From the UHGV virus genome UHGV-0338605: DNA of 29,450 bases. One strand, 5' to 3'. The notes beneath the pieces were generated by a model. It was not told the DNA's origin and did no database searches. It saw only the letters and a program-made list of their open reading frames with translations. The DNA is from a virus. This document shows positions 3,614 to 29,450 of the stretch, piece after piece. The position numbers and the translations under genes are program-made. How positions within the stretch are numbered: position 1 is the stretch's first letter; every line of letters starts with the position of its first letter.

Positions 3614-3690
3614 TGGTGCGGCATGCAGGATTCGAACCTGCGACCAACCGCTTAGAAGGCGGTTGCTCTATCCAACTGAGCTAATGCCAC
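3614..3690 (-). tRNA. tRNA-Arg (anticodon UCU), argU-like
   Basis: Minus-strand 77-nt sequence GTGGCATTAGCTCAGTTGGATAGAGCAACCGCCTTCTAAGCGGTTGGTCGCAGGTTCGAATCCTGCATGCCGCACCA folds as a cloverleaf: 7-bp acceptor stem with one G-U pair, GTTCGAATC T-loop, anticodon loop CTTCTAA, encoded CCA. Confidence 0.88.
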
Positions 3691-16564: not shown

Positions 16565-19500
16565 TGCCGATATATGAACAGGATCCTAAAAAGTTGCTTG
16601 GCGAGGATATTCAGCAAATAGCAGCACCTGATGACAGTAATTTCTATATGGAAACACCTTCTTTGCTTTCTGCTGTGAACCCATTTACCAGTGATCAACG
16701 CGTTCAAAGGTCTAGACAAGCAGCATTTCGTATAGATAACACGCTGGGTAGCTTTATTGCCAGTGCTCCTTTCAGTCAGTTTGACAGGGTTGAAGGATAT
16801 AACCCATTTGATAACGATGCAGCAGATATTAAAGGCTATGAAGATTTTGCAGATTCGTTTATCAACTCCGGTTCGCCTGAAGAAACAATGGCAATTAAAC
16901 ATCGAATCGATCAGCAGAGAGCTGACATGGAATACAATTCAGGCTTGGGATTTGCTGGTACAGTCTCTTCTGTAGCAATGAGATTAGCAGATCCATTCAA
17001 TGCGATTTCTATGTTTATTCCGTTCGGCGCTGTCGTTCGTGGCGGTCGTATTGCAGAAACAGCCGGGCGTTTTGCCCTGGCGAATGCTGCTGGCAGTGTT
17101 GCTTCAGAGGCCGCATTACAGGCCACTCAGGAAGCTCGCTCACCGATGGAGAGCGTATCGAACGTTGTTGTTGATGCTCTCGTTGGTGGGATCCTTGGTG
17201 CTGGTGCACAGCTACTTGCTGGACCTGGCGCGCGCGAGGCAGTGGTTAACTCAGTAGGTAATCATTTGCGAGGTATGGATTCTCCTCAAAGCATTGGTGC
17301 AGCTCAGGTTTTCAATACCACACTCGATCAGGAACAGCTCGCTGGACTTGGACTTGCTAACAAAACGTTGAGTGTCACTCCTGCTGGCCGCTTGGCGCAA
17401 TCACCATCTCTTGTCTCCCGTCAGATTAACCAGCAGCTTGCCGAAAATAACTATTTCTTCGCCAAAAATGATGAGGGGTTGGCTACGTTTACGGCAGTCG
17501 AGACTAAGATTAAGCAATACGACGCCATGCTTTATAAGCAGATGGAAGCCACTCGTGATGCTTACCAGCAGTACAGCAAATCTGTTAGCGCCCGCGGCGT
17601 GAAGAGGATGAACTTTATTGATTTCAATGAAGCTGTTGGCATGGCTATGCGCCGTGGTGATCAGAGTGATATTCCTGAGGTTTCACAAGCAGCCGCCAGA
17701 ATCCGCCCCATTTTCGAGACCACAAAAGCCCGTATGCAGGAACTGGGGATCCTTCCTAAGGATATCGATGTCGTGACGGCGAAAAGTTATCTTCCCCGCA
17801 TTTATAAGTTCGATAAGATACTTTCCGACCGCACTGAATTCAGAGGGCGAATTGCCAACTGGATACAAGGGATTAGTGCCAAAGGTGCTGACAAAGCAGG
17901 TCAGCGAATTGAAAGGATAAATTCATTGCTAAAAACTGCAGAGGAATCGGCACCGCGCGCTGATGCTCTCGCTAGTGAAATCGCTGAAGCGGAGAAATGG
18001 TCTGGTAAAAAAATTCTACTCATGGAAGAACTGGATAAACGAAATAAGCTTATATCTCAGGAGACTGACACACAGGCGCGTCTTACAAGAATAGAAAAAG
18101 AGTTGGCCGAGACTTCATCAGAAAAACTTCAGGCAAGAATGATGAAAGAAAGCTCTGACCTTAAAACACGCCTTGATGATATAGCGCAGGCAAAGAGTGA
18201 GCTTCCTGTCTATCAGCGCCATATGGAGTTGTTGGATAATCCACGGAAATATCGTTCTGAGCTTCGCCGACTGCAAAAACGGGCAAATTCAACCACAAGG
18301 CTGAATGCAAGCCGCGAACGAGCACTGAAGCAGATGGAGCCTCTATCCCGAGAGGAAGCAGAGGACGCTGCTGACGAGATCGTGAATAAAATAATAGGCG
18401 CACCTTCCGGGCTTGTACCAGCCGATATTATCCCAGAGAGACTCGTTGGTCGGGCTGGTTTCACTAAAAGCAGAACGCTGCTTATTCCTGATGAGCGTAT
18501 AGAAGATTTTCTTGAATCAGATGTTAACTACATCATGGAAAGTTATCTCCGGCAGGTGGCACCAGAAATTGAGCTGACTGCGCAGTTTGGCCGTAAAGAT
18601 ATGGGGGAGCAAATCCGTCAGGTTAGTGAGGAATATACCCGGCTAATAAAAGAGGCTAAAACACCTAAACGACGTGCAGTTCTTGAGAAGCAACGGGAGG
18701 CTGATATTAGGGATATTACGGCTATGCGTGATCGACTGCTTGGTACTTACGGTGCACCTCAAGATCCACGCAGTTTCTTTGTTCGTGCCGGGCGAGTTGC
18801 TAGGAATATTAACTTCCTCCGTTTGCTTGGTGGAATGACCGTCTCCGCTGCAACTGATCTGATGCGACCGATGATGCAGCATGGCCTGAGAAAATCTCTC
18901 GGACCAATGGTAAGCATGCTTAAAAATATGGACTCAGTGAAGATTGCAACCAGGGATTTGCGAGAAATGGCCGTTGGGCTTGATTATGTCCTGTCTACGC
19001 GTACAAAGGCTATAGCGGATCTTACTGACCCATATAGCCGGAGAAGCGCCGCTGAGCGAGGCCTGAACTGGATGACGCAGAAATTCGGTAACTGGACGCT
19101 GATGAATCAGTGGAACAGCGCACTTAAATCATGGTCTGGGATGATAGTGCAGTCGAGGATACTTGACGCGGCTCGCCAAGTTTCTGCTGGTGGCACGCTC
19201 TCCAAAAGTGAAATGCGGAAGATGGCACAGGTCGGCATCAATGAAGATGTTCTGCGCCGAATCGGGGAGCAATTCGGGAAGCACGGAGAGGATATGGACG
19301 GGCTGTTAACCGGGCATAGTCATCTGTGGGATGACCGTTTCGCTAGAGAGATTTTCCAGTCTGCAGTGCTGAAAGATGTAGACTCAGTGATTGTAACGCC
19401 TGGCGTAGGTGATACACCGCTGTTTTTTAGTAAAGAAGGCTGGAAGATGATCACGCAGTTCAAAACGTTTATCTTCGCACAGCATAACAGGGTGCTGGTA

Positions 19501-19953
19501 TCTGGTATCCAGCAGGGCGATGCTGCATTCTATCTTGGTGCGCTTGGCACGATTGCGCTTGGCTCAATGGTCTATATGATGAAACAGAAGTTAAGCGGTC
19601 GCGATATTGACTACAGCTGGAATAACCTTGTGAAAGAGGGGATCGACCGGGGCGGAATGCTTGGCTGGCTCTCTGAGCCGCTGAATACCGTTGAGAACAT
19701 AAGCGGTGGTAGGTTTGGTCTTGGCGCGATGTTTGGTGCGCCTCCGGTATCAAGGTTTCAGAGTCGTAATGCTATTGGTGCTTTACTTGGTCCTACCTTT
19801 GATCTTGGCGGTGATGCCGCGACGGTTGCGAATGGTGTACTTAACGGAGAATTTGACAGCCAGCAAACCCACGCGGTCCGTAAAATGCTACCTTTTCAGA
19901 ACCTGTGGGCGATATCACCATTACTAAATAAAGTTGAAGAGCAGATGAAATAG
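16564..19953 (+). CDS. internal core / ejection protein, gp16-like by position (1129 aa)
   Basis: Largest ORF of the module; start overlaps the upstream stop (ATAATG); long predicted coiled-coil-like central region; followed by TAG then the ATG of the next gene. Confidence 0.5.
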   Translation: MPIYEQDPKKLLGEDIQQIAAPDDSNFYMETPSLLSAVNPFTSDQRVQRSRQAAFRIDNTLGSFIASAPFSQFDRVEGYNPFDNDAADIKGYEDFADSFINSGSPEETMAIKHRIDQQRADMEYNSGLGFAGTVSSVAMRLADPFNAISMFIPFGAVVRGGRIAETAGRFALANAAGSVASEAALQATQEARSPMESVSNVVVDALVGGILGAGAQLLAGPGAREAVVNSVGNHLRGMDSPQSIGAAQVFNTTLDQEQLAGLGLANKTLSVTPAGRLAQSPSLVSRQINQQLAENNYFFAKNDEGLATFTAVETKIKQYDAMLYKQMEATRDAYQQYSKSVSARGVKRMNFIDFNEAVGMAMRRGDQSDIPEVSQAAARIRPIFETTKARMQELGILPKDIDVVTAKSYLPRIYKFDKILSDRTEFRGRIANWIQGISAKGADKAGQRIERINSLLKTAEESAPRADALASEIAEAEKWSGKKILLMEELDKRNKLISQETDTQARLTRIEKELAETSSEKLQARMMKESSDLKTRLDDIAQAKSELPVYQRHMELLDNPRKYRSELRRLQKRANSTTRLNASRERALKQMEPLSREEAEDAADEIVNKIIGAPSGLVPADIIPERLVGRAGFTKSRTLLIPDERIEDFLESDVNYIMESYLRQVAPEIELTAQFGRKDMGEQIRQVSEEYTRLIKEAKTPKRRAVLEKQREADIRDITAMRDRLLGTYGAPQDPRSFFVRAGRVARNINFLRLLGGMTVSAATDLMRPMMQHGLRKSLGPMVSMLKNMDSVKIATRDLREMAVGLDYVLSTRTKAIADLTDPYSRRSAAERGLNWMTQKFGNWTLMNQWNSALKSWSGMIVQSRILDAARQVSAGGTLSKSEMRKMAQVGINEDVLRRIGEQFGKHGEDMDGLLTGHSHLWDDRFAREIFQSAVLKDVDSVIVTPGVGDTPLFFSKEGWKMITQFKTFIFAQHNRVLVSGIQQGDAAFYLGALGTIALGSMVYMMKQKLSGRDIDYSWNNLVKEGIDRGGMLGWLSEPLNTVENISGGRFGLGAMFGAPPVSRFQSRNAIGALLGPTFDLGGDAATVANGVLNGEFDSQQTHAVRKMLPFQNLWAISPLLNKVEEQMK

Positions 19954-19954
19954 G

Positions 19955-20806
19955 ATGAAAAAAATAAATTTGTTTTTTGGCATAGTGCTTTCAATAGTCT
20001 CTGTAAATCCTACAGCTGCCAGTTCATTGCAATGCAATAAGGATAACTTTGATGCATGCAAAACGTGTGAACAATTATCAAAGGCTATCGACTTAAAAGA
20101 ACCTAATCGTGGCGATTACTATAGAGGGGCTTTATGGAATGGGCTTTACGCCTCTTATGTAATTAATTGCCCTGTGGTTGCTGAGAAGTTACTGAGCCAT
20201 GGTGCTATACCATCATATGGCGGATATATGGGGTCTATGGGGGCGGTTCTGACAGGAAAATGGCCTCATAACAATGAATCAATAAATCTTTCATGGGCAG
20301 ATTTGCTTATAAAACATGGATTTGATGTTAATAGGCATACGGGGAATTATAAATCAGCTACTGAAGTATGGGCTATAGATAAAAAACAGATTGAATATAA
20401 GTCAGTTTTTGACAAGTTAATTCAATCCAGCGAAGTAAAACCACTCGATCCTTCAAGAAATTTAGAATGGTGTGCGTCTGAAGGGTATCGCTCAGTTGTC
20501 GTTTATTCCCTTAACTCATGTATAGAAAATGCTATAAAACGTTTGGATGATGGTGTTTCTTCAGCGTCTGATATTTCATCAGCAGCCGTAAATTCCTGTA
20601 CTAGCGATGTAGAAAATTTCAATAAGCATTTGGCATGCAAAGCAGCTGTTAAAGAAAACTCTGATAAAGAGAGAAGCGACGTTTACCAGTTATTAACCAG
20701 TGATAGTCAAATGAATAAAAATGTTATTGATATGCTGAAGGAAAGAAATATTGAAACGGTTCTTGAATTTAGAGCTGAAAATCGATCAGCGAAAACTGCA
20801 CAGTGA
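19955..20806 (+). CDS. secreted or periplasmic protein of unknown function (283 aa), AT-rich accessory gene
   Basis: N-terminal signal peptide MKKINLFFGIVLSIVSVNPTAAS; strongly AT-rich compared with the flanking structural genes; ATG one nucleotide after the gp16-like stop; weak ankyrin-like LLxxGA/DVN patterns (LLSHGA, LLIKHGFDVN). Confidence 0.6.
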   Translation: MKKINLFFGIVLSIVSVNPTAASSLQCNKDNFDACKTCEQLSKAIDLKEPNRGDYYRGALWNGLYASYVINCPVVAEKLLSHGAIPSYGGYMGSMGAVLTGKWPHNNESINLSWADLLIKHGFDVNRHTGNYKSATEVWAIDKKQIEYKSVFDKLIQSSEVKPLDPSRNLEWCASEGYRSVVVYSLNSCIENAIKRLDDGVSSASDISSAAVNSCTSDVENFNKHLACKAAVKENSDKERSDVYQLLTSDSQMNKNVIDMLKERNIETVLEFRAENRSAKTAQ

Positions 20807-20812
20807 TCAAAC

Positions 20813-20837
20813 AGGCCGCTTTCGCGGCCTTGTTTTT
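20813..20837 (+). terminator. rho-independent terminator
   Basis: Stem AGGCCGC/GCGGCCT (20813-20830) with TTTC loop followed by TGTTTTT; ends the plus-strand late operon. Confidence 0.7.
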
Positions 20838-20997
20838 AACGAATGCCACCGCCGCCCGGGCGGGAATCCGCAGAACGCCCACCGCAGCGGGAGCCGTCAG
20901 CGGCAGTATCGCTGTCGTGCTGACAACGACCGGCAAAGGCCTGAGTTGAAGCTACCAGAGACAACAAAACGAACAGTGCAGCAAATGCTTTTTTCAT
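20836..20997 (-). CDS. small secreted peptide candidate (53 aa)
   Basis: Minus-strand ATG at 20997 gives MKKAFAALFVLLSLVASTQAFA followed by a short Cys-containing mature part. Coding status uncertain. Confidence 0.35.
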   Translation of the reverse strand: MKKAFAALFVLLSLVASTQAFAGRCQHDSDTAADGSRCGGRSADSRPGGGGIR

Positions 20998-21068
20998 TGT
21001 GACATTTCCATCTATAAGCCACCTCAATGTGGCGTCAATGAGTGTAGCACTGACTTTTGTTTCGTCCA

Positions 21069-21091
21069 CAAAAAAGCCCGCGCCGCGGGCT
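21069..21091 (-). terminator. rho-independent terminator for the 211-aa minus-strand gene
   Basis: Stem GCCCGC/GCGGGC (21076-21090); on the minus strand it is followed by TTTTTT (plus A6 at 21070-21075); sits just 3' of the CDS ending at 21099. Confidence 0.7.
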
Positions 21092-21098
21092 TAAAGAA

Positions 21099-21734
21099 CT
21101 ATTTTATTGGCAGCTTATGCTTTGAAATTATGGCCAATCTGTTTTGGAAGTTTTCCGCATCACCCCATAACCAGGTTTCACCTTTCTCAAGCTCTTCCTC
21201 GTTATTCATCTCTATCAGCTCGCATGTCATCATGTCGTAACCATAGAGGTGGAGGCCAAGTTCCAGTGCGTCATACATGCGAGCCTGCCAGAACGACATG
21301 CCTTCATGAGTCTGGTTGCGATCAGACACGATGATATCGTACCGTTCCAAGAGGTAGTTCATGAAGATGATGCCGGCGAAATCATGAAGCACAGCACGAT
21401 GCTTAGGCTTCTGGGTTCTCCATACCAATATCTGCGTGACAGGACGGCAGTTAAGATAGCTGTCAGGCTGGATAATGACACGATTGTAATACACTACCTC
21501 TTCGGTGAGGTCATTTATCAATGACAGTTCAAAGTGCGCCTGTGGAATCTCGCCTTTCTTACGATCGTCTACACGGACAACGCGGTATCCAGGAGCCAGA
21601 GAAACGCCTTTGACATCAGATGTGACATCGTTGCCGTTCACTAACTCTGAATACAGGGCGCGGTTGTCTGGAGTTTCGTTCAGATGAGCGAAAACCTCAG
21701 TTACCTTTGCTGGATTCAGCAGTTGTTGTGGCAT
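21099..21734 (-). CDS. hypothetical protein (211 aa), accessory gene of unknown function
   Basis: ATG at 21734 preceded by GAGGTG; own upstream palindrome site and downstream terminator; no family recognised. Confidence 0.65.
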   Translation of the reverse strand: MPQQLLNPAKVTEVFAHLNETPDNRALYSELVNGNDVTSDVKGVSLAPGYRVVRVDDRKKGEIPQAHFELSLINDLTEEVVYYNRVIIQPDSYLNCRPVTQILVWRTQKPKHRAVLHDFAGIIFMNYLLERYDIIVSDRNQTHEGMSFWQARMYDALELGLHLYGYDMMTCELIEMNNEEELEKGETWLWGDAENFQNRLAIISKHKLPIK

Positions 21735-21773
21735 ACATCACCTCATAATATATAGATGCTTCTTTAAGCGGGA

Positions 21774-21790
21774 TTTACCATTAGGGTAAA
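21774..21790. promoter_or_regulatory. 17-bp palindrome TTTACC-ATTAG-GGTAAA, candidate operator, copy 3 of 6
   Basis: Read directly; 40 bp upstream of the minus-strand ATG at 21734. Confidence 0.6.
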
Positions 21791-21927
21791 TGAACTATCC
21801 GAATGTTAAACGCCTTCGTACTCGTCAAATTTTCTCATGTGGGCTCCTCCTGTATCGGTGCCTAATCGCTATGGATCACCCGTAAGGTAATAGTACGCTA
21901 TTCACCCACAGTCTGCAATCTGTACAG

Positions 21928-21954
21928 AATTATTTAAAGGCACATCCCTGTGCC
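21928..21954 (-). terminator. possible terminator after the Bro-N gene
   Basis: Stem GGCACA/TGTGCC (21939-21954) with a 4-nt loop; on the minus strand it is followed by the T-rich TTTAAATAATTC; 9 bp 3' of the CDS ending at 21963. Confidence 0.4.
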
Positions 21955-21962
21955 GCCGCTAG

Positions 21963-22658
21963 TCAGAAGAATCCTGCTTTGTCGTTGATGTACTCCGCGT
22001 GAGTCTGGATATCACGCAGGCATTTGCTCACACCAACGATGTAGCAGAACATGGTGGTCAGTTCCGCCGCCGCGCCCGATACGTCATGCCCGTCTTCCTG
22101 TAACTGGTTCAGCAGATTCATCAGCAGTGAGTTCTCCGTCAGGCCGAGAACACCAGACGGCGAATGAATCAGGCTACGGTAGCCGGGCTTCAGTGGGGCG
22201 CTGTAGGTTTTGTTCTCTATCTTCATTGCCTGCATCACTGCTGATGCTGTGGCGTTTGCAACCTGGTCGGCAACCATCTTTATGCGTTCTTCCTGCGGGA
22301 GCGAGTTTTTAATGTAACTTCCGGTGCGGCGGATCTGAGGAAGAACCTCACCTGTAACCCATTTACGAAAGCGGTAGGGGATAGTGCCTGGTGTCACTGC
22401 GTCGCGGCAGCGGAGGATCAGTGTGTAGAGGCCTGACTCGGAGATGATGATCGATTCTTGCTCACCGCCAGGGGTGTCGGTTGAAGCGACGCCCTTCTCA
22501 TCATCATCAAGTTTTCGAACAGCATCTCGATGGTTTGCTATGCCTATAGCCCGACAAACATCTGAAGCGATAAACCATGGCTCACCATTAATGACGATTA
22601 CTCGTATATCGGCTTGGGATTCGAAAGAAAAAATGGACGTGCTTTTTGTAGCTGTCAT
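21963..22658 (-). CDS. Bro-N domain protein (antirepressor-like) with distinct C-terminal domain (231 aa)
   Basis: N-terminal FESQADIRVIVINGEPWFIASDVCRAIGIANHRDAVRKL matches the Bro-N/antirepressor N-terminal pattern; ATG at 22658 with AAGG upstream; C-terminal about 70 aa is paralogous to the small ORF at 23806-24066. Confidence 0.75.
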   Translation of the reverse strand: MTATKSTSIFSFESQADIRVIVINGEPWFIASDVCRAIGIANHRDAVRKLDDDEKGVASTDTPGGEQESIIISESGLYTLILRCRDAVTPGTIPYRFRKWVTGEVLPQIRRTGSYIKNSLPQEERIKMVADQVANATASAVMQAMKIENKTYSAPLKPGYRSLIHSPSGVLGLTENSLLMNLLNQLQEDGHDVSGAAAELTTMFCYIVGVSKCLRDIQTHAEYINDKAGFF

Positions 22659-22926
22659 AGTGGTTACCTTTTAGTCTGGTCAATCACCACTACCGACGCC
22701 AATCGGTTGGTGGTGAACTGTGCAGGGTTGGCGTAACCGGCTAAAAGGACCCGGCGCACCTTTCGGTGCCCCCACACAGCCCACCATAATACGAATGTGG
22801 CCGTGCTATACGCATAAAAAAACCGCTTGCGCGGTGAATGCGCCTTTTAGTAATCCGGGACGCCAATCCCGGCACTGGATTTTGCCAGTGCCCGATTACT
22901 ATGGCACAAGAGGAGTGCGATGTAAA

Positions 22927-22943
22927 TTTACCGAAAAGGTAAT
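22927..22943. promoter_or_regulatory. 17-bp palindrome TTTACC-GAAAA-GGTAAT, candidate operator, copy 4 of 6
   Basis: Read directly, in the divergent intergenic region 22659-23055. Confidence 0.6.
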
Positions 22944-23019
22944 GATAAACGCGGAGAAATATTAAAATCAACCGTATTTGGTTGATTGCGTTTAACGCTT
23001 GATCACCTGAAAGCAAGAT

Positions 23020-23036
23020 ATTACCTTTAAGGTAAT
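23020..23036. promoter_or_regulatory. 17-bp palindrome ATTACC-TTTAA-GGTAAT, candidate operator, copy 5 of 6
   Basis: Read directly; 20 bp upstream of the ATG at 23056. Confidence 0.6.
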
Positions 23037-23055
23037 GTTATTGTGAGGAAAAGCA

Positions 23056-23784
23056 ATGGAAGTTTTCTGGATAGTTGTTGGTGTTGTTACGGTGATTATT
23101 TACGTTATCAACCAGAACAGGACTAAGGTCTCTGATCGCACAGTCGTTAATCATCGCAAAACGATAAAGACCGAAGATGGAGAAATAACGATTAATCGTA
23201 CACAGGTGATAGACCACACCTCCACTCAGTTTCAAAAAACTGGAGGTAATGCGCCGGATATTTCAGTACATCCTGCTTATGATATATCGGTAATCCAGAC
23301 ATATTATAAACAACAGGAGTCAGCAAAAGAGAGGGCGCTGATTCAGCCAAAGCCATTTACAGCAGAGCTTCCACCTGGAGTGTCAACGCGTCCGGCATAT
23401 CATGACAGATTCCCAGGTGATGACATATCGTCTCAGTTACCTAAAAAAGCTCCTCAGGTAGTATCTGAGCCAGCAAGAATACCTTCTGTATCGCCATCAC
23501 AAGAAGAATCAGCTAACAGAGTTTCAAGTGGTAGTAAGCAGTGTTTGCGATGCAGAATAAACCTTCCATATGAAAAATTCAGGAAATCGTCAAAAAATCC
23601 AGATGGATTGACTAAGTGGTGTGCAAGGTGTCTCGATGGCCCAAAGAATACACGCCATATGAAGTGGTGCCCAATTTGTAATGTCCGCAGAAAACGCACC
23701 AGCTTTTACTCTAATAATCAAAATGCGGACGGCTTAATGGCATGGTGCAAAACGTGCTGGGACGAGCACAAAGCGAAACGATAG
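23056..23784 (+). CDS. membrane-anchored protein with tandem Cys4 zinc-ribbon-like repeats (242 aa)
   Basis: GAGGAA RBS; N-terminal hydrophobic helix FWIVVGVVTVIIYVI; C-terminus carries two repeats of C-x2-C-x(17-20)-DGL-x3-WC-x2-C; AT-rich; followed by a strong terminator. Confidence 0.65.
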   Translation: MEVFWIVVGVVTVIIYVINQNRTKVSDRTVVNHRKTIKTEDGEITINRTQVIDHTSTQFQKTGGNAPDISVHPAYDISVIQTYYKQQESAKERALIQPKPFTAELPPGVSTRPAYHDRFPGDDISSQLPKKAPQVVSEPARIPSVSPSQEESANRVSSGSKQCLRCRINLPYEKFRKSSKNPDGLTKWCARCLDGPKNTRHMKWCPICNVRRKRTSFYSNNQNADGLMAWCKTCWDEHKAKR

Positions 23785-23808
23785 GCCGCTCTTGCGGCCT
23801 TTTTTTTA
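23784..23808 (+). terminator. rho-independent terminator
   Basis: Stem GGCCGC/GCGGCC (23784-23799) with TCTT loop followed by T8 (23800-23807). Confidence 0.75.
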
Positions 23809-24066
23809 TGTGGTTTGTTTTCGTAATTGTTCGGCACAATAGTCGAGATGTGTTTGCAGATCCTTCATGGATAGCTGTGAGCTGGTGACATAGTTCACCA
23901 GTGCAGTAAGTTCGGCCAGCGGCCCGTCGACGTTGAACCCGTCTTTATCAAGTTCCCGCAATAAAGTCATAAGGTGCGAGTTCTCCACCAGGGATATAAC
24001 GCCTCCCGGCGTGTGTACTCTTTCATAAAATCCATCTTCCAGTGGGTGGTGATACCGCTGTTGCAT
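23806..24066 (-). CDS. small protein (86 aa) paralogous to the C-terminal domain of the Bro-N protein
   Basis: ATG at 24066 preceded by GGAG (the track ORF begins at a TTG at 24084). About 40-45% identity by eye to residues about 160-225 of the 231-aa Bro-N protein (shared ENS-LM-LL, DG-V-G, AELT, QTH-Y). Confidence 0.6.
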   Translation of the reverse strand: MQQRYHHPLEDGFYERVHTPGGVISLVENSHLMTLLRELDKDGFNVDGPLAELTALVNYVTSSQLSMKDLQTHLDYCAEQLRKQTT

Positions 24067-24141
24067 TAACCATTCTCCATACAAACACTGTATATATATA
24101 CATATATCAGATGAACCACTGTTTCACCAGTATGATTTTTA

Positions 24142-24158
24142 ATTACCTGTGAGGTAAT
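24142..24158. promoter_or_regulatory. 17-bp palindrome ATTACC-TGTGA-GGTAAT, candidate operator, copy 6 of 6
   Basis: Read directly; between the divergent starts of the 86-aa gene (24066, minus) and the tail spike gene (24262, plus). Confidence 0.6.
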
Positions 24159-24261
24159 AACTTTGTTGATTACATCTCGTGCGATTCATATATGGTTCGT
24201 TGGGTAATAGAATAACCAGTAGTGCGGTGCGCCGGGTGCTGCGACTTTCTGGAGTTTAAAC

Positions 24262-26973
24262 ATGACGGTCTCAACCGAAGTTGACCACAATGACTACACG
24301 GGTAACGGGGTCACGACATCATTCCCCTATACCTTCCGAATTTTTCATAAGTCTGATCTGGTGGTGCAGGTTGTTGACCTGAGCGAAAACATCACTGAAT
24401 TAACACTGGACACTGACTACACGGTGACAGGTGCTGGCGGATATACTGGCGGGAATGTTGTTTTATCGTCGCCTCTTGCCAATGGTTATCAGATTTCGAT
24501 ATCCAGAGAGTTACCGGTTACCCAGGAGACTGATCTCAGAAATCAGGGTAAGTTTTTCGCAGAAGTGCATGAGGATGCTTTTGATAAGTTGACCATGCTG
24601 ATACAGCAGGCAATTAGCTGGCTGCGCCTTTCTTTACGTAAGCCGTCTTTTATTGCAAATTATTATGATGCCCTGGGTAACTACATACGAAATCTTCGTG
24701 ACCCGTCACGACCACAGGATGCAGCTACAAAAAATTACGTTGACGGGGTTGCTGAAGGTAACATTTCTTATGCAGATTCTCTATTTAAAAGAACCTTAAG
24801 AGTTCCTGAGGATTATGTTGACCAGATACCATCAAATGCTGATAGATCAAATAAAATACTTGCTTTTGATTCTGGAGGTAAACCGATTGCTGTTTTACCT
24901 GAATCTGGTTCTGCTTCAGATGTTTTAATTGAGCTGGCAAATAACGGTGATAAAAAAATTGGTAGCTCATATGGTGGCACAGTTTATAGCGACTACCAAC
25001 AATCAATTTTTGTCAAAAAAGGAGATTTTTATTCCGGTTTAAGCATATCGGGAAAAGATGATGCCTACCTTTTTTCTGATGGGCTATGGTATGTATGGAC
25101 TGGCGCATTACCGCACACGATCTTGTCGGGTGAAACTCCTGATGTAGAAACAACTAAATGGGCTTGTGTAGGCCTGCTTAATGGGCATGAAATTTGTTCT
25201 GCTCTTAACTATAGCGATTCATGGGGCATCCATGATGATTCACCATTACTTCGCAAAGCCATCATTAGTTTAATAAGAACTGGATATGCAAGATTTTGCA
25301 TTAACGCTGGCGTTACTATTAACCTTTTTACTGATTGCGAAATTCCGTTCTATCTGGATGGGAGGGCTGTGTCTTTCCGTTTTCATGGAGAAACAGCAAT
25401 TGGTTCTTTAGGAAGAGTGTCAGAACTAGTAGTAGCTCTAGGTATTAGAGGTCTTGTATTCGAGGCTATTCAAGTAGAGATTGACCATTTCACTATGCGT
25501 CAGTGGGTTGGTAATGCTGGGCAGTCTATTGTCAGTTATACATCTGATACAGTTACGCTATCTTTTGACCCATGGCCTGACGGACGCACCCCAGTGATAT
25601 GGCCTTGGGGAACTACTGCTGGTGATGGCACTGTTTACACAAGCTTTTTAGAATTTACAACTGACAGTGGTGGTTATTACGCATCTGGCGTAACTCGCAA
25701 CTTAGATGGAACCGTAACACTAACCAATGTCCATCCTATTGGGCCAACTAATACAATCGCTTCCGCAACGATTGTTAACTTTTTCCAGAGTCATGCTAAT
25801 AACTATCCAGAAGGAAGTTTCGCAGATACGGCAGCAGTAATCACCCTGGGGGTATCAGAAAACCCATTTATTCATAACTTATGGGTGCTTGCTGTCTATC
25901 GAGGCTTTGCTCACGGTCTTGGCTCTGGAGCAGGTCCGGGAGTATTGATGGGAAATATCGGCGTATGGTCTGATATTGTCGTAGACAACGCTTTATACTT
26001 TATAGCTAATACTGATGTGAATCCATCATCTGGGCAAGGCATCAACAATGGGATGTTCAATAACATTCAGTTATCAAACGTCCGTCGTGGAATAAGAGCA
26101 CGTAGAGCCTACAATCTTGCATTCACAAACCTTCAGCATATTGCTAGCGGTAATGTTTCATTTGATGCTGTTACTATACTGGCAAATGAAATAGAAGGTG
26201 TTACTTTAAATGGATCTCAGTTTGGTTGGACATCTATCGACTGGGTTATAGATACATGGGTTCCTAAACTACTCAAGTGTACCCGATTACGTCGCTCCTC
26301 TATTACTGGATGCGTGTTCGGTCGACATGATGTAACCATCACAAGAGGTGCCGTAATTGACGTTAAGGACGGCACAATACTAGGTTTAACACTAACTGGT
26401 AATTCTATGGTTACAATCGACGAAAACTCAGATTCAAGTAACTATGGATGGATTGAGTGTAATGAGCTTAAATCATCAGTTATTTCTGATAACTCCCCTA
26501 GTTCAGGTAGTGAGCTTGGTGGAAGCATTAATCTCTCGCTGAGAACTGCTTCTAATGACTTAACAAAATTTGATAACACATATTTTGGTCAACCAGTCAG
26601 AACAAACGCAGAAGCTGGTGTGTTTGATAATGAACTAGCATCCGGTGGAAATGTTTTTGACAGCACAACTGAATACAGAGACGCAGGTAAAATTTTAATC
26701 TTTGTTGATGTAAACAATGCTGCTGTATGGCCTGATAATTCAAGGAATATCATACCATTCGGCGGAGGATTAACAGGAGGTAAAACACTTGGATTGCCTA
26801 CCCCAGCAGTACTCCTGTCATTGAAAAGAAGAAGTGTTCTGGTTGATTTGTCATCTGTGGTTTTTGGTAGCCAGACAATTGGAGTGTATAACGGGGCAAC
26901 TTTGGTATCAACAATATCAACTCCTGGTGTTTATGAGTTTCTCCTCGTAGGGGCAAAATACATAAAATTATAA
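24262..26973 (+). CDS. tail spike / tail fibre receptor-binding protein (903 aa)
   Basis: GGAG RBS; N-terminal MTVSTEVDHNDYTGNGVTTSFPYTFRIF...DLVV is the conserved virion-attachment type of N-terminus seen on many tail fibres and spikes; the remainder is AT-rich and Ser/Thr/Gly/Asn-rich. Confidence 0.75.
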   Translation: MTVSTEVDHNDYTGNGVTTSFPYTFRIFHKSDLVVQVVDLSENITELTLDTDYTVTGAGGYTGGNVVLSSPLANGYQISISRELPVTQETDLRNQGKFFAEVHEDAFDKLTMLIQQAISWLRLSLRKPSFIANYYDALGNYIRNLRDPSRPQDAATKNYVDGVAEGNISYADSLFKRTLRVPEDYVDQIPSNADRSNKILAFDSGGKPIAVLPESGSASDVLIELANNGDKKIGSSYGGTVYSDYQQSIFVKKGDFYSGLSISGKDDAYLFSDGLWYVWTGALPHTILSGETPDVETTKWACVGLLNGHEICSALNYSDSWGIHDDSPLLRKAIISLIRTGYARFCINAGVTINLFTDCEIPFYLDGRAVSFRFHGETAIGSLGRVSELVVALGIRGLVFEAIQVEIDHFTMRQWVGNAGQSIVSYTSDTVTLSFDPWPDGRTPVIWPWGTTAGDGTVYTSFLEFTTDSGGYYASGVTRNLDGTVTLTNVHPIGPTNTIASATIVNFFQSHANNYPEGSFADTAAVITLGVSENPFIHNLWVLAVYRGFAHGLGSGAGPGVLMGNIGVWSDIVVDNALYFIANTDVNPSSGQGINNGMFNNIQLSNVRRGIRARRAYNLAFTNLQHIASGNVSFDAVTILANEIEGVTLNGSQFGWTSIDWVIDTWVPKLLKCTRLRRSSITGCVFGRHDVTITRGAVIDVKDGTILGLTLTGNSMVTIDENSDSSNYGWIECNELKSSVISDNSPSSGSELGGSINLSLRTASNDLTKFDNTYFGQPVRTNAEAGVFDNELASGGNVFDSTTEYRDAGKILIFVDVNNAAVWPDNSRNIIPFGGGLTGGKTLGLPTPAVLLSLKRRSVLVDLSSVVFGSQTIGVYNGATLVSTISTPGVYEFLLVGAKYIKL

Positions 26974-26980
26974 GCTTAAC

Positions 26981-27006
26981 AGGCCGGGAAACCGGCCTAT
27001 TTTTTA
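26981..27006 (+). terminator. rho-independent terminator after the tail spike gene
   Basis: Stem AGGCCGG/CCGGCCT (26981-26998) with GAAA loop followed by ATTTTTT. Confidence 0.75.
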
Positions 27007-27049
27007 CTAATTATTTTTTGAAGTTACTAAATAGTCACAATGAAAATTT

Positions 27050-27065
27050 AAACCATATATGGTTT
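27050..27065. promoter_or_regulatory. 16-bp perfect palindrome AAACCATATATGGTTT upstream of the lysis cassette
   Basis: Read directly; about 60 bp upstream of the holin ATG at 27127. Confidence 0.5.
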
Positions 27066-27126
27066 ATTGTGTGTGATGTGATCACCAACTAATGGGGGTC
27101 TTTATGCACAGTAAACGGTGGTCACC

Positions 27127-27531
27127 ATGTCAGCCCAGCTAACCAGTGAGTCTTTAAATCAGTGGCTTAGTATGGGTTCTCTGGCTGCAGTGATCGCAGG
27201 AGTTCCACCAGAGGTGGCGCTTGGTGCTTTATCAGGTGCGGTAATATTTATTACCTCAGCCGTTGAGTATCCAATACGCCGTCGGGTTCTCCTGTCGATG
27301 CTCAGCTTCCTCTGCGGGCTTCTATTCTACAAACCAACTGCATCAATCCTTATCGGCGTAGCCAGCCTGATCCCAACTATCACGCAGGACTCTTTCGAGA
27401 AAGGGATCGTCTTCTCTGCTGGCGCGTTCGTGTCGGCAATCGTCGCAGTACGTATTGGTATCTGGCTCTATCACCGTTCCGACAATCCACGCGATTTAAT
27501 CCCGGGGAGAAAAGACGATGACAACTCATGA
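27127..27531 (+). CDS. putative holin (multi-pass membrane protein, 134 aa)
   Basis: ATG 27127 preceded by GGTGG (track begins at GTG 27118); several hydrophobic segments and a charged C-terminus; first gene of the lysis cassette. Confidence 0.6.
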   Translation: MSAQLTSESLNQWLSMGSLAAVIAGVPPEVALGALSGAVIFITSAVEYPIRRRVLLSMLSFLCGLLFYKPTASILIGVASLIPTITQDSFEKGIVFSAGAFVSAIVAVRIGIWLYHRSDNPRDLIPGRKDDDNS

Positions 27532-27823
27532 GCTGCTTTTACTGATTGCCAATGCGGTTATCTGTTCAGCTATAGCAATCCGCGTCGGTACATTCAGGCG
27601 TAATGGATCGCAACACCGCCGGTGGGGTGGGTGGATAGCCTACTTCCTTATCGTGGCATCAGCCAGCATCCCCGTCCGGGCTGCATATGCAATCTGGTAT
27701 CACACACCAATGTCCGCTGATTTATCAGAGGTCATCATCAATGCTGTCATGCTTGCCGCCGTTCTGAAGACGCGCGGTAACGTCGTGCAGATATTCAAAA
27801 TATCGAGGTCTCAACATGAGTGA
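27518..27823 (+). CDS. second holin-like / antiholin-like membrane protein (101 aa)
   Basis: GGGGAG RBS; overlaps the upstream gene's 3' end; three hydrophobic segments. Confidence 0.55.
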   Translation: MTTHELLLLIANAVICSAIAIRVGTFRRNGSQHRRWGGWIAYFLIVASASIPVRAAYAIWYHTPMSADLSEVIINAVMLAAVLKTRGNVVQIFKISRSQHE

Positions 27824-28295
27824 ACTTGCATGGATTTCTGAAGGAAGAAAATATATAGGGCAACTGGAAATCAAAGGCCCTCGTCATAATCCTCTAATTC
27901 TCCAGTTCTGGAAGGATATTAAACGAGGTGGTATCAAAGATGATGAAACGCCATGGTGTGCTGCATACGTCGGATCAATGCTCGAGCGTGTCGGAATCAA
28001 ATCAACCCGTTTCGAGTCTGCAAAATCTTACCTCAACTGGGGCGTCGAAATTAGCGAACCAGCTTATGGGTGTGTAGTGGTATTCAATCGTGACGGTGGC
28101 GGACATGTCGGGTTTGTTGTCGGACAGCAACAGAACGGTGACCTGATGGTGCTGGGCGGTAATCAGTCAGATGCCATCAATATTCGTGCATTTTCACGCT
28201 CCCGTGTCACCGGTTACCGCTGGCCTGTTAATGTTGCCAAGGACAACAGGAAGTTACCTTTAATGACCGGCTCATTATCGGTGAGTGAATCATGA
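27816..28295 (+). CDS. putative endolysin (Cys/His peptidase-type peptidoglycan hydrolase, 159 aa)
   Basis: ETPWCAAYVGSML and GGGHVGFVVG motifs suggest a Cys/His hydrolase of the type often found as endolysin beside holins (TIGR02594-like, from memory); overlaps the upstream stop. Confidence 0.6.
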   Translation: MSELAWISEGRKYIGQLEIKGPRHNPLILQFWKDIKRGGIKDDETPWCAAYVGSMLERVGIKSTRFESAKSYLNWGVEISEPAYGCVVVFNRDGGGHVGFVVGQQQNGDLMVLGGNQSDAINIRAFSRSRVTGYRWPVNVAKDNRKLPLMTGSLSVSES

Positions 28296-28774
28296 TCAGA
28301 GCATTCATGAAAGCGTACTGGAAACAGTTGCTTATCGTGGCGATGCTTGCTGCTCTGGTGATCGTCGGCGTTGTTGCCTGGAATGTTCATGGCAGCCGAC
28401 AGTATGACGCCGGGTATGCGCAGGCAAAGACAGACCGTAAAACCGAAGATGATAAAGCTCGTCAGCACGACGAACAGGAGAAAGCAATCAATGAACGTAA
28501 AGCGCAGCAGAGGATCGACCAGGCGCGCAATGATGCTCTTGATGCTGCCGCTCGCGCTGGCAGGTTGCAGCAACAGCTCGTTGCCATCCGTGAGCAGCTC
28601 AGGCAGTATAACGCCATTGTCGGCGCTGGGCCGTCAGCCGCAGACACCGGTGTTTTGCTTGCCGACTTGCTCAGCAAATCTCTCGAGCGAAACCGACAAC
28701 TGGCAGAGTACGCTGATCGGGCAGCCGAAGCAGGAAGAGTCTGTGAAAAGCAGTACGATTCGCTGACCAGGTGA
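28292..28774 (+). CDS. Rz-like i-spanin (160 aa)
   Basis: N-terminal transmembrane segment LLIVAMLAALVIVGVVAW followed by a charged coiled-coil-like region; ATG overlaps the endolysin stop (ATGA). Confidence 0.7.
   Translation: MIRAFMKAYWKQLLIVAMLAALVIVGVVAWNVHGSRQYDAGYAQAKTDRKTEDDKARQHDEQEKAINERKAQQRIDQARNDALDAAARAGRLQQQLVAIREQLRQYNAIVGAGPSAADTGVLLADLLSKSLERNRQLAEYADRAAEAGRVCEKQYDSLTR
28491..28766 (+). CDS. Rz1-like o-spanin lipoprotein embedded in Rz in the +1 frame (91 aa)
   Basis: AGGAG before ATG 28491; signal peptide with lipobox LALAGC; Pro/Ser-rich mature part; entirely within the Rz gene, as in lambda Rz/Rz1. Confidence 0.6.
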   Translation: MNVKRSRGSTRRAMMLLMLPLALAGCSNSSLPSVSSSGSITPLSALGRQPQTPVFCLPTCSANLSSETDNWQSTLIGQPKQEESVKSSTIR

Positions 28775-28941
28775 CATGGCATTTTTCATGGTACTGATTT
28801 CCGGCGACGGTATATAAAACGGTATTGGAAATTTTGTTTCTTTAAAAGTTGTTGTCAGTCAATTACTTATGTTGTCCGTAAATAATTGAGTGGGAATGAT
28901 TTGACCCTGCACTATGAATGAACAAAACCCTCTGTTACTAC

Positions 28942-29450
28942 CTGTCTCTTGATCAGATCTCCTGATCAAGAGACTTCATCACCAGGTAACCCTCAACCAT
29001 ATCCTGAAGTCTGAACCAGCCATCCCACATGACTACCCAACCGGGGCGACCGGTGCGTTTGCTGTCATGCCATCGCCCCAGTTTCGCCAGTTTCAGACAG
29101 GCCCATTTCAGTGTCGGCATCTGTGACGGAAGCGGTTTTCCTTCCAGCTTAACCCACAGCAGTTTCCACTCTGTCGGCGTCAGTATTTTCTCACAGCTGT
29201 CATTTTGTGTTTCTTCACTGATACCGCCCTGCCGCAGGCCCAGCACCCGCACCGCGATAAACGCCTTGATAACCACCATGCGCTCGAGGTTATCCCGGGT
29301 CTGCATTCGCAGCGATTCCACACATGTACCACCACTTTTCCACGCCTTGTGGTATTCCTCTATCAGCCAGCGTCGCTCGTAATGGCTGACGATACGTCGC
29401 GCATCGGCGGCACTCGCCACTTTTTCTGACGTCAGCAGATGCCAGCAGGC
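28942..29450. mobile_element. IS50-like (IS4 family) insertion sequence, one end only; runs off the window
   Basis: 28942-28960 CTGTCTCTTGATCAGATCT matches, from memory, the 19-bp inside end of IS50; the adjacent minus-strand ORF is a Tn5-transposase-like C-terminus. Confidence 0.75.
28953..29450 (-). CDS. IS4-family (Tn5/IS50-like) transposase, C-terminal part; 5' end beyond window
   Basis: Translation contains IEEYHKAWKSGG, DNLERMV, ILTPTEW, DSKRTG, W.GW, matching the conserved C-terminal blocks of Tn5 transposase as recalled; stop TGA lies inside the terminal repeat. Confidence 0.75.
   Translation of the reverse strand, partial: ACWHLLTSEKVASAADARRIVSHYERRWLIEEYHKAWKSGGTCVESLRMQTRDNLERMVVIKAFIAVRVLGLRQGGISEETQNDSCEKILTPTEWKLLWVKLEGKPLPSQMPTLKWACLKLAKLGRWHDSKRTGRPGWVVMWDGWFRLQDMVEGYLVMKSLDQEI

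Follow-up and report, generated by a model that had tools for sequence, protein, structure and literature searches.

Tailspike bodies determine the O-antigen or capsule type to which a phage can adsorb, and one spike gene in a window of 29,450 nucleotides (the whole stretch of viral DNA analysed here) raises the question of whether its receptor-binding part was swapped in by recombination and whether an AT-rich composition marks the swapped piece. The original prediction held both, placing the boundary about 150 codons into the gene. Our analysis indicates that the spike is very probably a chain of exchangeable modules, carried by a temperate, epsilon15-like podovirus that has integrated in E. 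coli, and that its composition changes at a different place from its modules.

The open reading frame is genuine and encodes a tailspike, as had been proposed; the spike belongs to an epsilon15-like (Uetakevirus-type) prophage of E. coli (Table 1). Its 5' 549 nt match the tailspike genes of epsilon15 and VB_ST_E15 at 82-84% DNA identity (81.8% for epsilon15), and across epsilon15-type phages the 5' 347-549 nt align at 74-84%. Gene order also follows epsilon15, running from a small reverse ORF through the spike and its terminator to two holins, an endolysin and DUF2514; a rho-independent terminator is annotated in epsilon15 at the position equivalent to the hairpin found here. The holin protein encoded at 27118-27531 carries PF16931, and PF05449 is recorded for a 101-aa product in the corresponding slot of L003-L006, of which L006 has the same DNA as the window across 14262-28941 (100% identity).

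Table 1. The spike gene, its segments and its surroundings, in window coordinates.
Feature	Coordinates	Strand	Remarks
Tailspike gene of epsilon15-like prophage	24262..26973	+	903 aa, ATG start; basis: ORF, epsilon15-type 5' DNA match, gene order
Segment A, aa 1-122, conserved virion-anchor core	24262..24627	+	GC3 0.525, backbone-like codon usage
Segment B, aa 123-235, distal anchor/neck	24628..24966	+	Protein conserved, GC3 0.195
Segment C, aa 236-307, small beta domain resembling Tail_spike_N (PF18668)	24967..25182	+	Travels with body
Segment D, aa 308-829, predicted right-handed parallel beta-helix body, presumed glycan-binding/depolymerase	25183..26748	+	Model
Segment E, aa 830-903, C-terminal beta-sandwich, putative trimerisation/binding role	26749..26970	+	AF2 strands
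Small reverse-strand ORF, phrog_450 match	23806..24084	-	Left border of block co-moving with spike
Terminator-like hairpin and T-run just 3' of stop codon	26981..27005	+	7-bp stem, 6 GC pairs, then ATTTTTTA
Two holin genes, co-moving with spike	27118..27823	+	Inside 4-kb shared block 23806-27818
Right-hand joint	27046..27050	n/a	Homology to prophages with other spike bodies restarts

The N-terminal part is as widely shared as had been expected: a protein search returned 2515 proteins with E<=1e-5, and the 5' part alone was matched in 487 of 5426 complete E. coli genomes. Among 120 listed matches, 95 share the N-terminus, aligning from residue 1 and mostly ending at aa 226-274, with a minority extending at lower identity to aa ~444. 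Mean protein identity to these 95 relatives is 0.91 over aa 1-122, 0.90 over aa 1-160 and 0.89 over aa 122-160, and 0.56 over aa 161-226. Residues 1-168 are homologous by sequence to the solved Klebsiella-phage spikes Dpo31/Dpo36 (28lx, 8ck1; E=1.7e-25), and the KN1 capsule depolymerase 9m4c aligns with residues 135-234 (E=5e-10). The domain limits that we give within aa 1-235 rest on conservation and on these matches to solved structures, because the AF2 model made for aa 1-320 from an alignment of 58 sequences was too poor to set them (pLDDT 53, pTM 0.28). A Pfam scan of the query spike found the P22 head-binding domain PF09008 absent. DNA homology to different relatives stops at gene nt 347, 410, 482 and 549, and the N-terminal ~230 aa are joined elsewhere to bodies annotated as PF13229, PF12708, PF09251, PF13088, PF13472 and PF27114.

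Searches made separately with the C-terminal part gave the reciprocal picture, with the body joined to unrelated N-termini. Proteins with a P22 head-binding domain, a T7 tail-fibre N-terminus or one of at least six other N-termini share residues ~227-903 with the spike at 74-91% identity, and the relatives that have the body in common begin aligning at aa 226-249. Some carry an N-terminal PF09008 (P0010-14 and P0018; E=4e-67), P0009 and P0017 carry the T7 tail-fibre domain PF03906 (E=1.4e-15), and P0007, P0008, P0013, P0015, P0016 and P0019 provide six further N-termini, each with a different best tail PHROG. Genomic context confirms two of these assignments, in that a P22-like prophage carrying the body has genes for gp7, gp20, gp16 and SieA, and a T7-like phage carrying it has gp13-16 genes and an RNA polymerase. 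At the DNA level, the P22-like copy matches window 24958-26984 with 85.7% identity and the T7-like copy matches 25078-26965 with 88.9%; within this stretch, the 450 nt at gene nt 1351-1800 are 96-99% identical in both copies, and nt 1981-2070 are 69% identical. An anchor on many bodies, and the same body on at least eight other N-termini, strongly support the proposed swap by recombination.

The body itself is rare. It belongs to phrog_22294, annotated 'unknown function', and only 18 representative clusters among 1.84 billion match it. A megablast search of the 5426 complete E. coli genomes found no copy of it, and a tblastn search of 50,697 phage records yielded at best four Vibrio phages at 28.7% identity, along with short matches to Kuttervirus-like Salmonella phages; among these records, no isolated phage carries this body. 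Neither outcome named beforehand as refuting the swap was obtained: composition is uneven at synonymous sites, as described below, and most homologs are not collinear with the spike over its whole length. The few that are (95-98% identity, from Salmonella and Citrobacter) represent the same mosaic allele, which sits on a 4-kb block.

Base composition tells a different story from the modules. The gene has a GC content of 0.417 against 0.494 for the window, and a two-segment likelihood scan over all positions places a break at gene nt 367 (window 24629; GC 0.474 to 0.408), but this all-site step is not significant, since 90 of 300 codon shuffles matched its likelihood gain. At synonymous sites composition is clearly not uniform: GC3 is 0.525 up to codon 122 (window ~24628) and drops to 0.283 beyond it, with a log-likelihood gain of 13.35 against 2.44 +/- 1.23 in shuffles, matched by none of 2000. 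GC1 and GC2 do not fall (0.516/0.377 at aa 1-122 against 0.489/0.460 at aa 308-829), and the effect is therefore one of synonymous codon choice, not amino-acid content. The claim that the gene turns AT-rich from about 24700 stands in this synonymous sense only, and the predicted enrichment of the body in Ser, Thr, Asn and Gly was not borne out (46 of 150 residues before the proposed boundary and 260 of 753 after it; Fisher p=0.40). The N-terminal GC3 does have the predicted local character, lying within the range of the window's structural genes (0.42-0.66); the gene immediately upstream (23056-23784) is itself lower, at 0.383. Beyond the spike stop codon the AT-rich tract runs on for ~75 nt, to ~27050, and GC climbs from 0.37-0.39 to 0.51 across the right-hand joint. 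Selection on codons according to expression level was considered as a cause of the low GC3 and rejected, because the shift lies within a single gene.

The composition break at codon 122 precedes the module junction (aa ~226-241; window ~24937-24985) by ~100 codons, and a second junction lies at aa 308 (25184). The boundary originally placed near codon 150 is thus close to the composition break but is not a module junction, and because break and junction differ, composition alone cannot tell which part was swapped. The lowest GC3 of the gene lies in the neck, below that of the body (0.295). AT-richness does not delimit the swapped piece, because the AT-rich aa 123-240 are 97-100% DNA-identical to the spike of E. 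coli O127:H6 E2348/69 (WP_000218894.1), whose body is only 40% identical. Moreover, all 11 epsilon15-type spikes examined show the drop, with GC3 of 0.41-0.55 over aa 1-120 and 0.24-0.40 from aa 236 to the end; they carry nine distinct body types in all, and the drop is therefore a family-wide property, not the mark of one particular swap.

These observations lend weight to an alternative that accepts the mosaic but does not take composition as its trace: synonymous AT-richness would be a property maintained in bodies and necks, not the relic of a foreign donor, whether by selection (for instance slow translation aiding trimer folding, or H-NS silencing in the lysogen) or by a common mutational regime in the gene pool. 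The recurrence of the drop across nine body types favours it, as do the body GC3 of 0.2-0.44 retained inside P22-like and T7-like backbones of GC 0.49-0.51, the GC3 minimum in a protein-conserved part of the anchor module, and the identity of the low-GC3 neck to that of E2348/69, whose body differs. However, a low-GC gene pool with frequent transfer would give the same pattern, and an AT-rich accessory gene in the same prophage (19955-20806; GC3 0.282) would be in keeping with an overall AT bias of mobile cargo. On balance we consider maintained AT-richness unlikely as the better account. A related reading makes the body (aa ~236-903) a rare family of depolymerases, so far uncharacterised and specific for a new glycan, and has selection keep the uniformly low synonymous GC of spike necks and bodies in temperate and lytic backbones alike; this we regard as rather improbable.

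The analysis assigns the body to no enzymatic class. The query spike has zero Pfam families above threshold. The body models as a beta-helix, in line with the structure expected for it, and the central domain is predicted to have the pectin-lyase-type beta-helix fold. The AF2 body model is of a monomer, with low confidence at aa ~306-409; its structural matches share ~10% sequence identity with Foldseek TM-scores of only 0.13-0.26, and the top ones are mostly depolymerases, glycosidases or lyases. They include the Acinetobacter and Klebsiella depolymerase spikes APK09 gp48 (8oq0), AM24 (5w5p) and Kp32gp38 (9qrm), whose substrates and catalytic mechanisms are not transferable to the spike. When PDB sequences were searched with a profile built from the body alignment, no solved relative of the body emerged; the matches to P22/Sf6 head-binding domains came from the N-terminal overhang of aligned relatives, not from the body. 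Ahead of the helix, the small domain is flanked by the motifs GDKKIGSSYGG and WACVGLLNG and models with pLDDT 73-87 over aa 247-306. Its PF18668 match scores 20.5 bits at aa 249-294, below the cut-off of 25, while the homologous region of the P22-type relative P0010 scores 28.7 bits; matches of 88-98 bits in P0008, P0009, P0013 and P0019 fall mostly in their own upstream copies. Behind the helix, the strands of the C-terminal domain (model residues 604-676) have pLDDT 73-89. This domain is retained even in P0023 and P0026, whose body is 42-45% identical, and its DNA is 62-71% identical to the P22-like copy and 82-87% identical to the T7-like copy.

Could the body be a non-catalytic adhesin, a beta-helix that binds its receptor glycan without depolymerising it? 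That no catalytic family is recognised fits such a role, and PF12708 (Pect-lyase_RHGA_epim) has no match in the query at E<=1. Yet PF12708 is present in the distant sequence relatives P0121 and P0122 (30-31% identical, and its only bearers), our alignment of 26 sequences, reaching down to 30% identity, shows no change at the acidic residues D326, E533 and D575, and PMC5380687 lists epsilon15 gp20 as an endorhamnosidase. Together with the prevalence of depolymerases, glycosidases and lyases among the structural matches, this makes a purely adhesive role quite improbable, and we favour a body that probably also depolymerises its glycan, perhaps with serotype specificity.

The joints can be followed in other prophages. 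Homology to an O166:H15 prophage ends at 24671 and restarts at 27050. For the E2348/69 prophage it ends at 25184, after which the body DNA is unalignable, and restarts at 27046; the first 923 nt of its spike gene are 94.8% identical overall (97-100% at nt 1-720, 77-92% at nt 721-900) and the flanks are homologous. Larger blocks have also moved: 23806-28905 is 99.8% identical with E. coli JHQV01, and 23806-27818 is 96-97% identical with Citrobacter and Salmonella prophages. Blocks common to other backbones start at exactly 23806, and the backbones around them are otherwise 68-76% identical or unalignable. A history without module exchange, in which diversifying selection alone made the C-terminal part variable where it stands and composition followed amino-acid usage, is scarcely credible and already contradicted: although the few full-length homologs and the protein collinearity of the E2348/69 spike would suit it, the body DNA remains 86-89% identical (96-99% in the 450-nt core) behind unrelated P22-like and T7-like N-termini, homology breaks sharply and restarts at 27046-27050, GC3 falls with GC1 and GC2 flat, and Ser/Thr/Asn/Gly content does not differ significantly between the two sides.

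The architecture resembles that of known spikes. Epsilon15 gp20, like the spikes of TL-2011b and vB_EcoP_ZX5, joins an N-terminal anchor to a beta-helix body in a podovirus, and its gene is likewise preceded by a small reverse ORF and followed by the holins. It differs in length (1070 aa against 903 aa) and in body family, with no DNA match beyond gene nt 549 and protein alignments to 1070-aa gp20-like proteins stopping at aa 258; unlike the window, epsilon15 also has the conversion genes gp21/gp22 between spike and holins. The body of the E2348/69 spike is a distant member of the same family, with 39.8% identity over 608 aa, but an acyltransferase gene and one further gene lie between its spike and holins, and its endolysin is GH19 instead of CHAP. 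The spikes of P22, Sf6, HK620, CUS-3 and K1F combine a conserved N-terminal virion-binding domain with interchangeable beta-helix bodies, as here, and the same architecture and module exchange have been described for P22-like spikes (PMC2629481) and for CUS-3/K1F (PMC5380687), where one endosialidase body sits on P22-type and T7-type N-termini much as our body does. However, our spike has an epsilon15-type anchor in place of the P22 head-binding domain, and the body bears no sequence relation to those of P22, Sf6 and HK620 or to endosialidases.

We therefore return to the modular chain as the preferred explanation. Residues 1-~160 would anchor the spike to the tail of an epsilon15-type phage, with aa ~160-235 forming a looser neck, and the beta-helix from aa 308 to ~830 would bind, and probably cleave, a surface polysaccharide, presumably O-antigen or capsule. 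The small domain, the helix and the C-terminal domain behave jointly as one cassette, possibly in a trimer. Through recombination this cassette would have come to sit behind nine or more different virion-attachment N-termini, in temperate as well as lytic phages, and the epsilon15-type anchor in turn bears many different bodies. The joints cluster at the short conserved interdomain motifs and just past the gene's terminator, and exchange may have proceeded by recombination at those motifs; gene conversion also takes place inside the body. In the latest event of this lineage, a block of 4-5 kb comprising the small reverse ORF, the spike and the holins would have passed between divergent backbones of epsilon15-like type, spanning E. 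coli, Salmonella and Citrobacter. Low synonymous GC is a trait of the distal anchor and of bodies generally, persisting in every backbone examined.

The principle of module swapping is already well documented in P22, Sf6, HK620, CUS-3 and K1F, and the spike described here is a further, ordinary and well-delimited example, whose allele points to a rare uncharacterised beta-helix family. That the spike-plus-holin block has moved among prophages of E. coli, Salmonella and Citrobacter suggests that these hosts have a surface glycan in common. More generally, a cassette found behind nine anchors in temperate and lytic phages provides direct material for the prediction and engineering of host range.

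The tailspike gene sits among the late genes of an epsilon15-like prophage, which are arranged as in epsilon15: large internal-virion proteins, a Bro-N gene, a small reverse ORF, the spike, two holins, an endolysin, and DUF2514. Of 5426 complete E. coli genomes, 1535 contain prophages that match the stretch upstream of the spike (1-24259), and in 13 of these the match covers at least 80% of its length at ~90% identity. An identical spike protein (P0001) occurs on 35 E. coli contigs. Contig L006, one of the compared loci, shares window 14262-28941 at 100% identity and from there continues into yfgI/yfgH, indicating that the transposase fragment beyond 28941 belongs to an IS element located at the prophage's right end or beside it. 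A tRNA gene lies inside the early or packaging region.

Features of the spike region and other parts of the window
Feature	Position	Strand	Remarks
tRNA gene	3617-3690	-	Rfam RF00005, 71 bits
Second AT-rich gene, 283 aa	19955-20806	+	phrog_6118 (unknown function)
BRO-N/antirepressor-like gene	21963-22658	-
C4 antisense RNA	22706-22791	-	Rfam, 77.7 bits, gathering score reached
isrK	22816-22891	-	Rfam, 77.9 bits, gathering score reached
242-aa protein	23056-23784	+	phrog_6762 (unknown function)
Strong terminator-like hairpin	23783-23800		after gene 23056-23784
Small reverse ORF	23806-24084	-	phrog_450
Tailspike gene	24262-26973	+	903 aa
Terminator-like hairpin	26981-26998		after spike stop codon; right joint ~50 nt further
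CHAP-domain protein (PF05257), 159 aa	27816-28295	+	endolysin slot
Tn5/IS50-like transposase C-terminal fragment (PF02281, PF01609)	28953-29420	-	within 28942-29450

The original prediction held that the spike joins a widely shared N-terminal pattern to a body swapped in by recombination. The first part is borne out: 2515 proteins share the epsilon15-type N-terminus at E<=1e-5, and among the 5426 complete E. coli genomes the match is confined to the gene's 5' part in 487, and none contains all of it. Across 95 relatives that share this N-terminus, mean identity is 0.91 at aa 1-121, 0.89 at aa 122-160, 0.56 at aa 161-226, and 0.22 at aa 227-307, and alignments mostly end at aa 226-274. The bodies behind the shared anchor include, by Pfam, beta-helix (PF13229), PF12708, P22-type (PF09251), sialidase-like (PF13088), SGNH (PF13472), and PF27114 families. 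Solved Klebsiella-phage spikes match aa 1-168 and aa 135-234 by sequence.

The body, in turn, is shared by many anchors. Counterparts of residues ~227-903, at 74-91% protein identity, follow a P22 head-binding domain in some proteins and a T7 tail-fibre N-terminus in others, and they also follow no fewer than six further N-termini, each with a different best-matching tail PHROG. Genomic context confirmed the P22-like prophage (gp7, gp20, gp16, sieA, and gtr-like genes) and the T7-like contig (39.7 kb; gp13-16, terminase, and RNA polymerase genes). Body DNA is 85.7% identical to the P22-like copy (window 24958-26984) and 88.9% to the T7-like copy (25078-26965). This identity is patchy, reaching 96-99% in both copies at gene nt 1351-1800 and 69% at nt 1981-2070, and the two copies are unlike each other at the 3' end, so exchange takes place inside the body as well. 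With the anchor on different bodies and the body on different N-termini, the recombination interpretation is supported.

Comparison with two E. coli prophages located the joints. Homology to the O166:H15 prophage is lost at 24671 and regained at 27050, and that to the E2348/69 prophage is lost at 25184 and regained at 27046. Over gene nt 1-720 the E2348/69 spike DNA shows 97-100% identity, and over nt 721-900 it shows 77-92%; beyond that it is unalignable, yet its body protein remains 39.8% identical over 608 aa. This is a case of one allele replacing a divergent one within a single family. Two other related spikes (P0023 and P0026) fall from ~90% to ~40% identity at the WACVGLLNG motif, as at the E2348/69 joint. 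In ETEC H10407 (NC_017633.1 2844025-2851507), an IS66-family (ISCro1-like) insertion cuts an epsilon15-type spike gene short after ~228 codons, near the same boundary of neck and body. The most recent event probably moved more than the body alone: one E. coli contig matches window 23806-28905 at 99.8%, although its backbone upstream is only 68-76% identical or unalignable, and 23806-27818 is 96-97% identical to Citrobacter freundii and Salmonella prophages with yet another backbone and a different endolysin. Position 23806, a recurrent left border of blocks common to several backbones, is the stop-codon end of the small reverse ORF. This ORF has a weak match to an anti-repressor PHROG (phrog_1760, E=2.7e-7) and, judged by eye, looks like the C-terminal portion of the Bro-N protein.

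In the endolysin slot, a second cassette seems to have been replaced cleanly, with its edges at gene boundaries. A GH19 enzyme fills this slot in epsilon15 and in the relatives from E2348/69, O166:H15, Citrobacter, and Salmonella, whereas the window carries a CHAP protein; homology to the latter four is lost precisely at 27818 and returns at 28292. Between spike and holins (26974-27117) the window has no lysogenic-conversion genes; in epsilon15 this place is taken by an O-antigen polymerase and an inhibitor, and in E2348/69 and several further E. coli relatives by acyltransferase or GtrA/glycosyltransferase genes. Upstream, C4 and isrK directly precede the BRO-N/antirepressor-like gene, suggesting that this podovirus prophage has an immunity module of the P1/P7 C4-ant type. 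The 242-aa protein has a cysteine-rich C-terminus (aa 197-241) matching endonuclease VII, Lar-like, and Stc1 zinc-finger models.

The spike gene has a GC content of 0.417 against 0.494 for the window. A shift to AT-rich sequence had been predicted at about 24700; it holds at synonymous sites, with the boundary refined to codon 122 (~24628), where GC3 drops from 0.525 to 0.283 (0/2000 shuffles reach that split), but not over all positions, where the two-segment split (0.474 to 0.408 at 24629) was equalled by 90 of 300 codon shuffles and is not significant. GC1 and GC2 are flat or slightly up distally, so the shift reflects codon choice, not amino-acid content; the predicted Ser/Thr/Asn/Gly enrichment after the N-terminal part was not found (30.7% versus 34.5%, p=0.40). 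GC3 is lowest at aa 123-235 (0.195; body 0.295), and AT-richness runs ~75 nt beyond the stop codon, to ~27050. Eleven epsilon15-type spikes with nine distinct body types have GC3 of 0.41-0.55 at aa 1-120 and 0.24-0.40 from aa 236 to the end, with flat GC1 and GC2, and body GC3 stays at 0.2-0.44 in P22-like and T7-like backbones of GC 0.49-0.51; the pattern is thus common to the necks and bodies of spikes across the family, and is compatible with a shared, often-exchanged AT-rich gene pool, or with selection on neck and body sequences. It does not mark a single swap: the main module junction is ~100 codons further downstream than the break, and the AT-rich aa 123-240 are near-identical in the E2348/69 spike, whose body differs. 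A gene-level expression effect is ruled out, as the shift falls inside one gene. A second AT-rich gene (GC 0.369, GC3 0.282), without a Pfam family, ends the internal-virion-protein cluster and may be cargo or a moron.

The body family (phrog_22294, 'unknown function') is rare, with 24 proteins by word-indexed search and 18 representative clusters among 1.84 billion by full HMMER scan; the nearest match in a phage genome collection, in Vibrio phages, is only 28.7% identical. Sequence searches of solved structures found none related to the body, and no Pfam family reached threshold for the spike protein (PF18668, 20.5 bits; cut-off 25). An AF2 model of aa 227-903 (pLDDT 72.3, pTM 0.63) is confident in three parts, with aa 247-306 forming a small beta domain, aa ~416-786 a long beta-rich core, and aa 830-903 a C-terminal beta-sandwich, and is weak at aa ~306-409; Foldseek agreed in kind at low TM-scores. 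The model of aa 1-320 was too poor for use. D326, E533, and D575, invariant down to 30% identity, are candidate functional residues.

Tailspikes are known to combine a conserved N-terminus that binds the virion with a beta-helix body that can be exchanged: P22-like phages conserve aa 1-115 in front of unrelated bodies (PMC2629481), and in CUS-3 and K1F one catalytic domain is common to P22-type and T7-type N-termini (PMC5380687). To this known architecture, the present spike gene adds an epsilon15-type anchor joined to a rare, uncharacterised body family.
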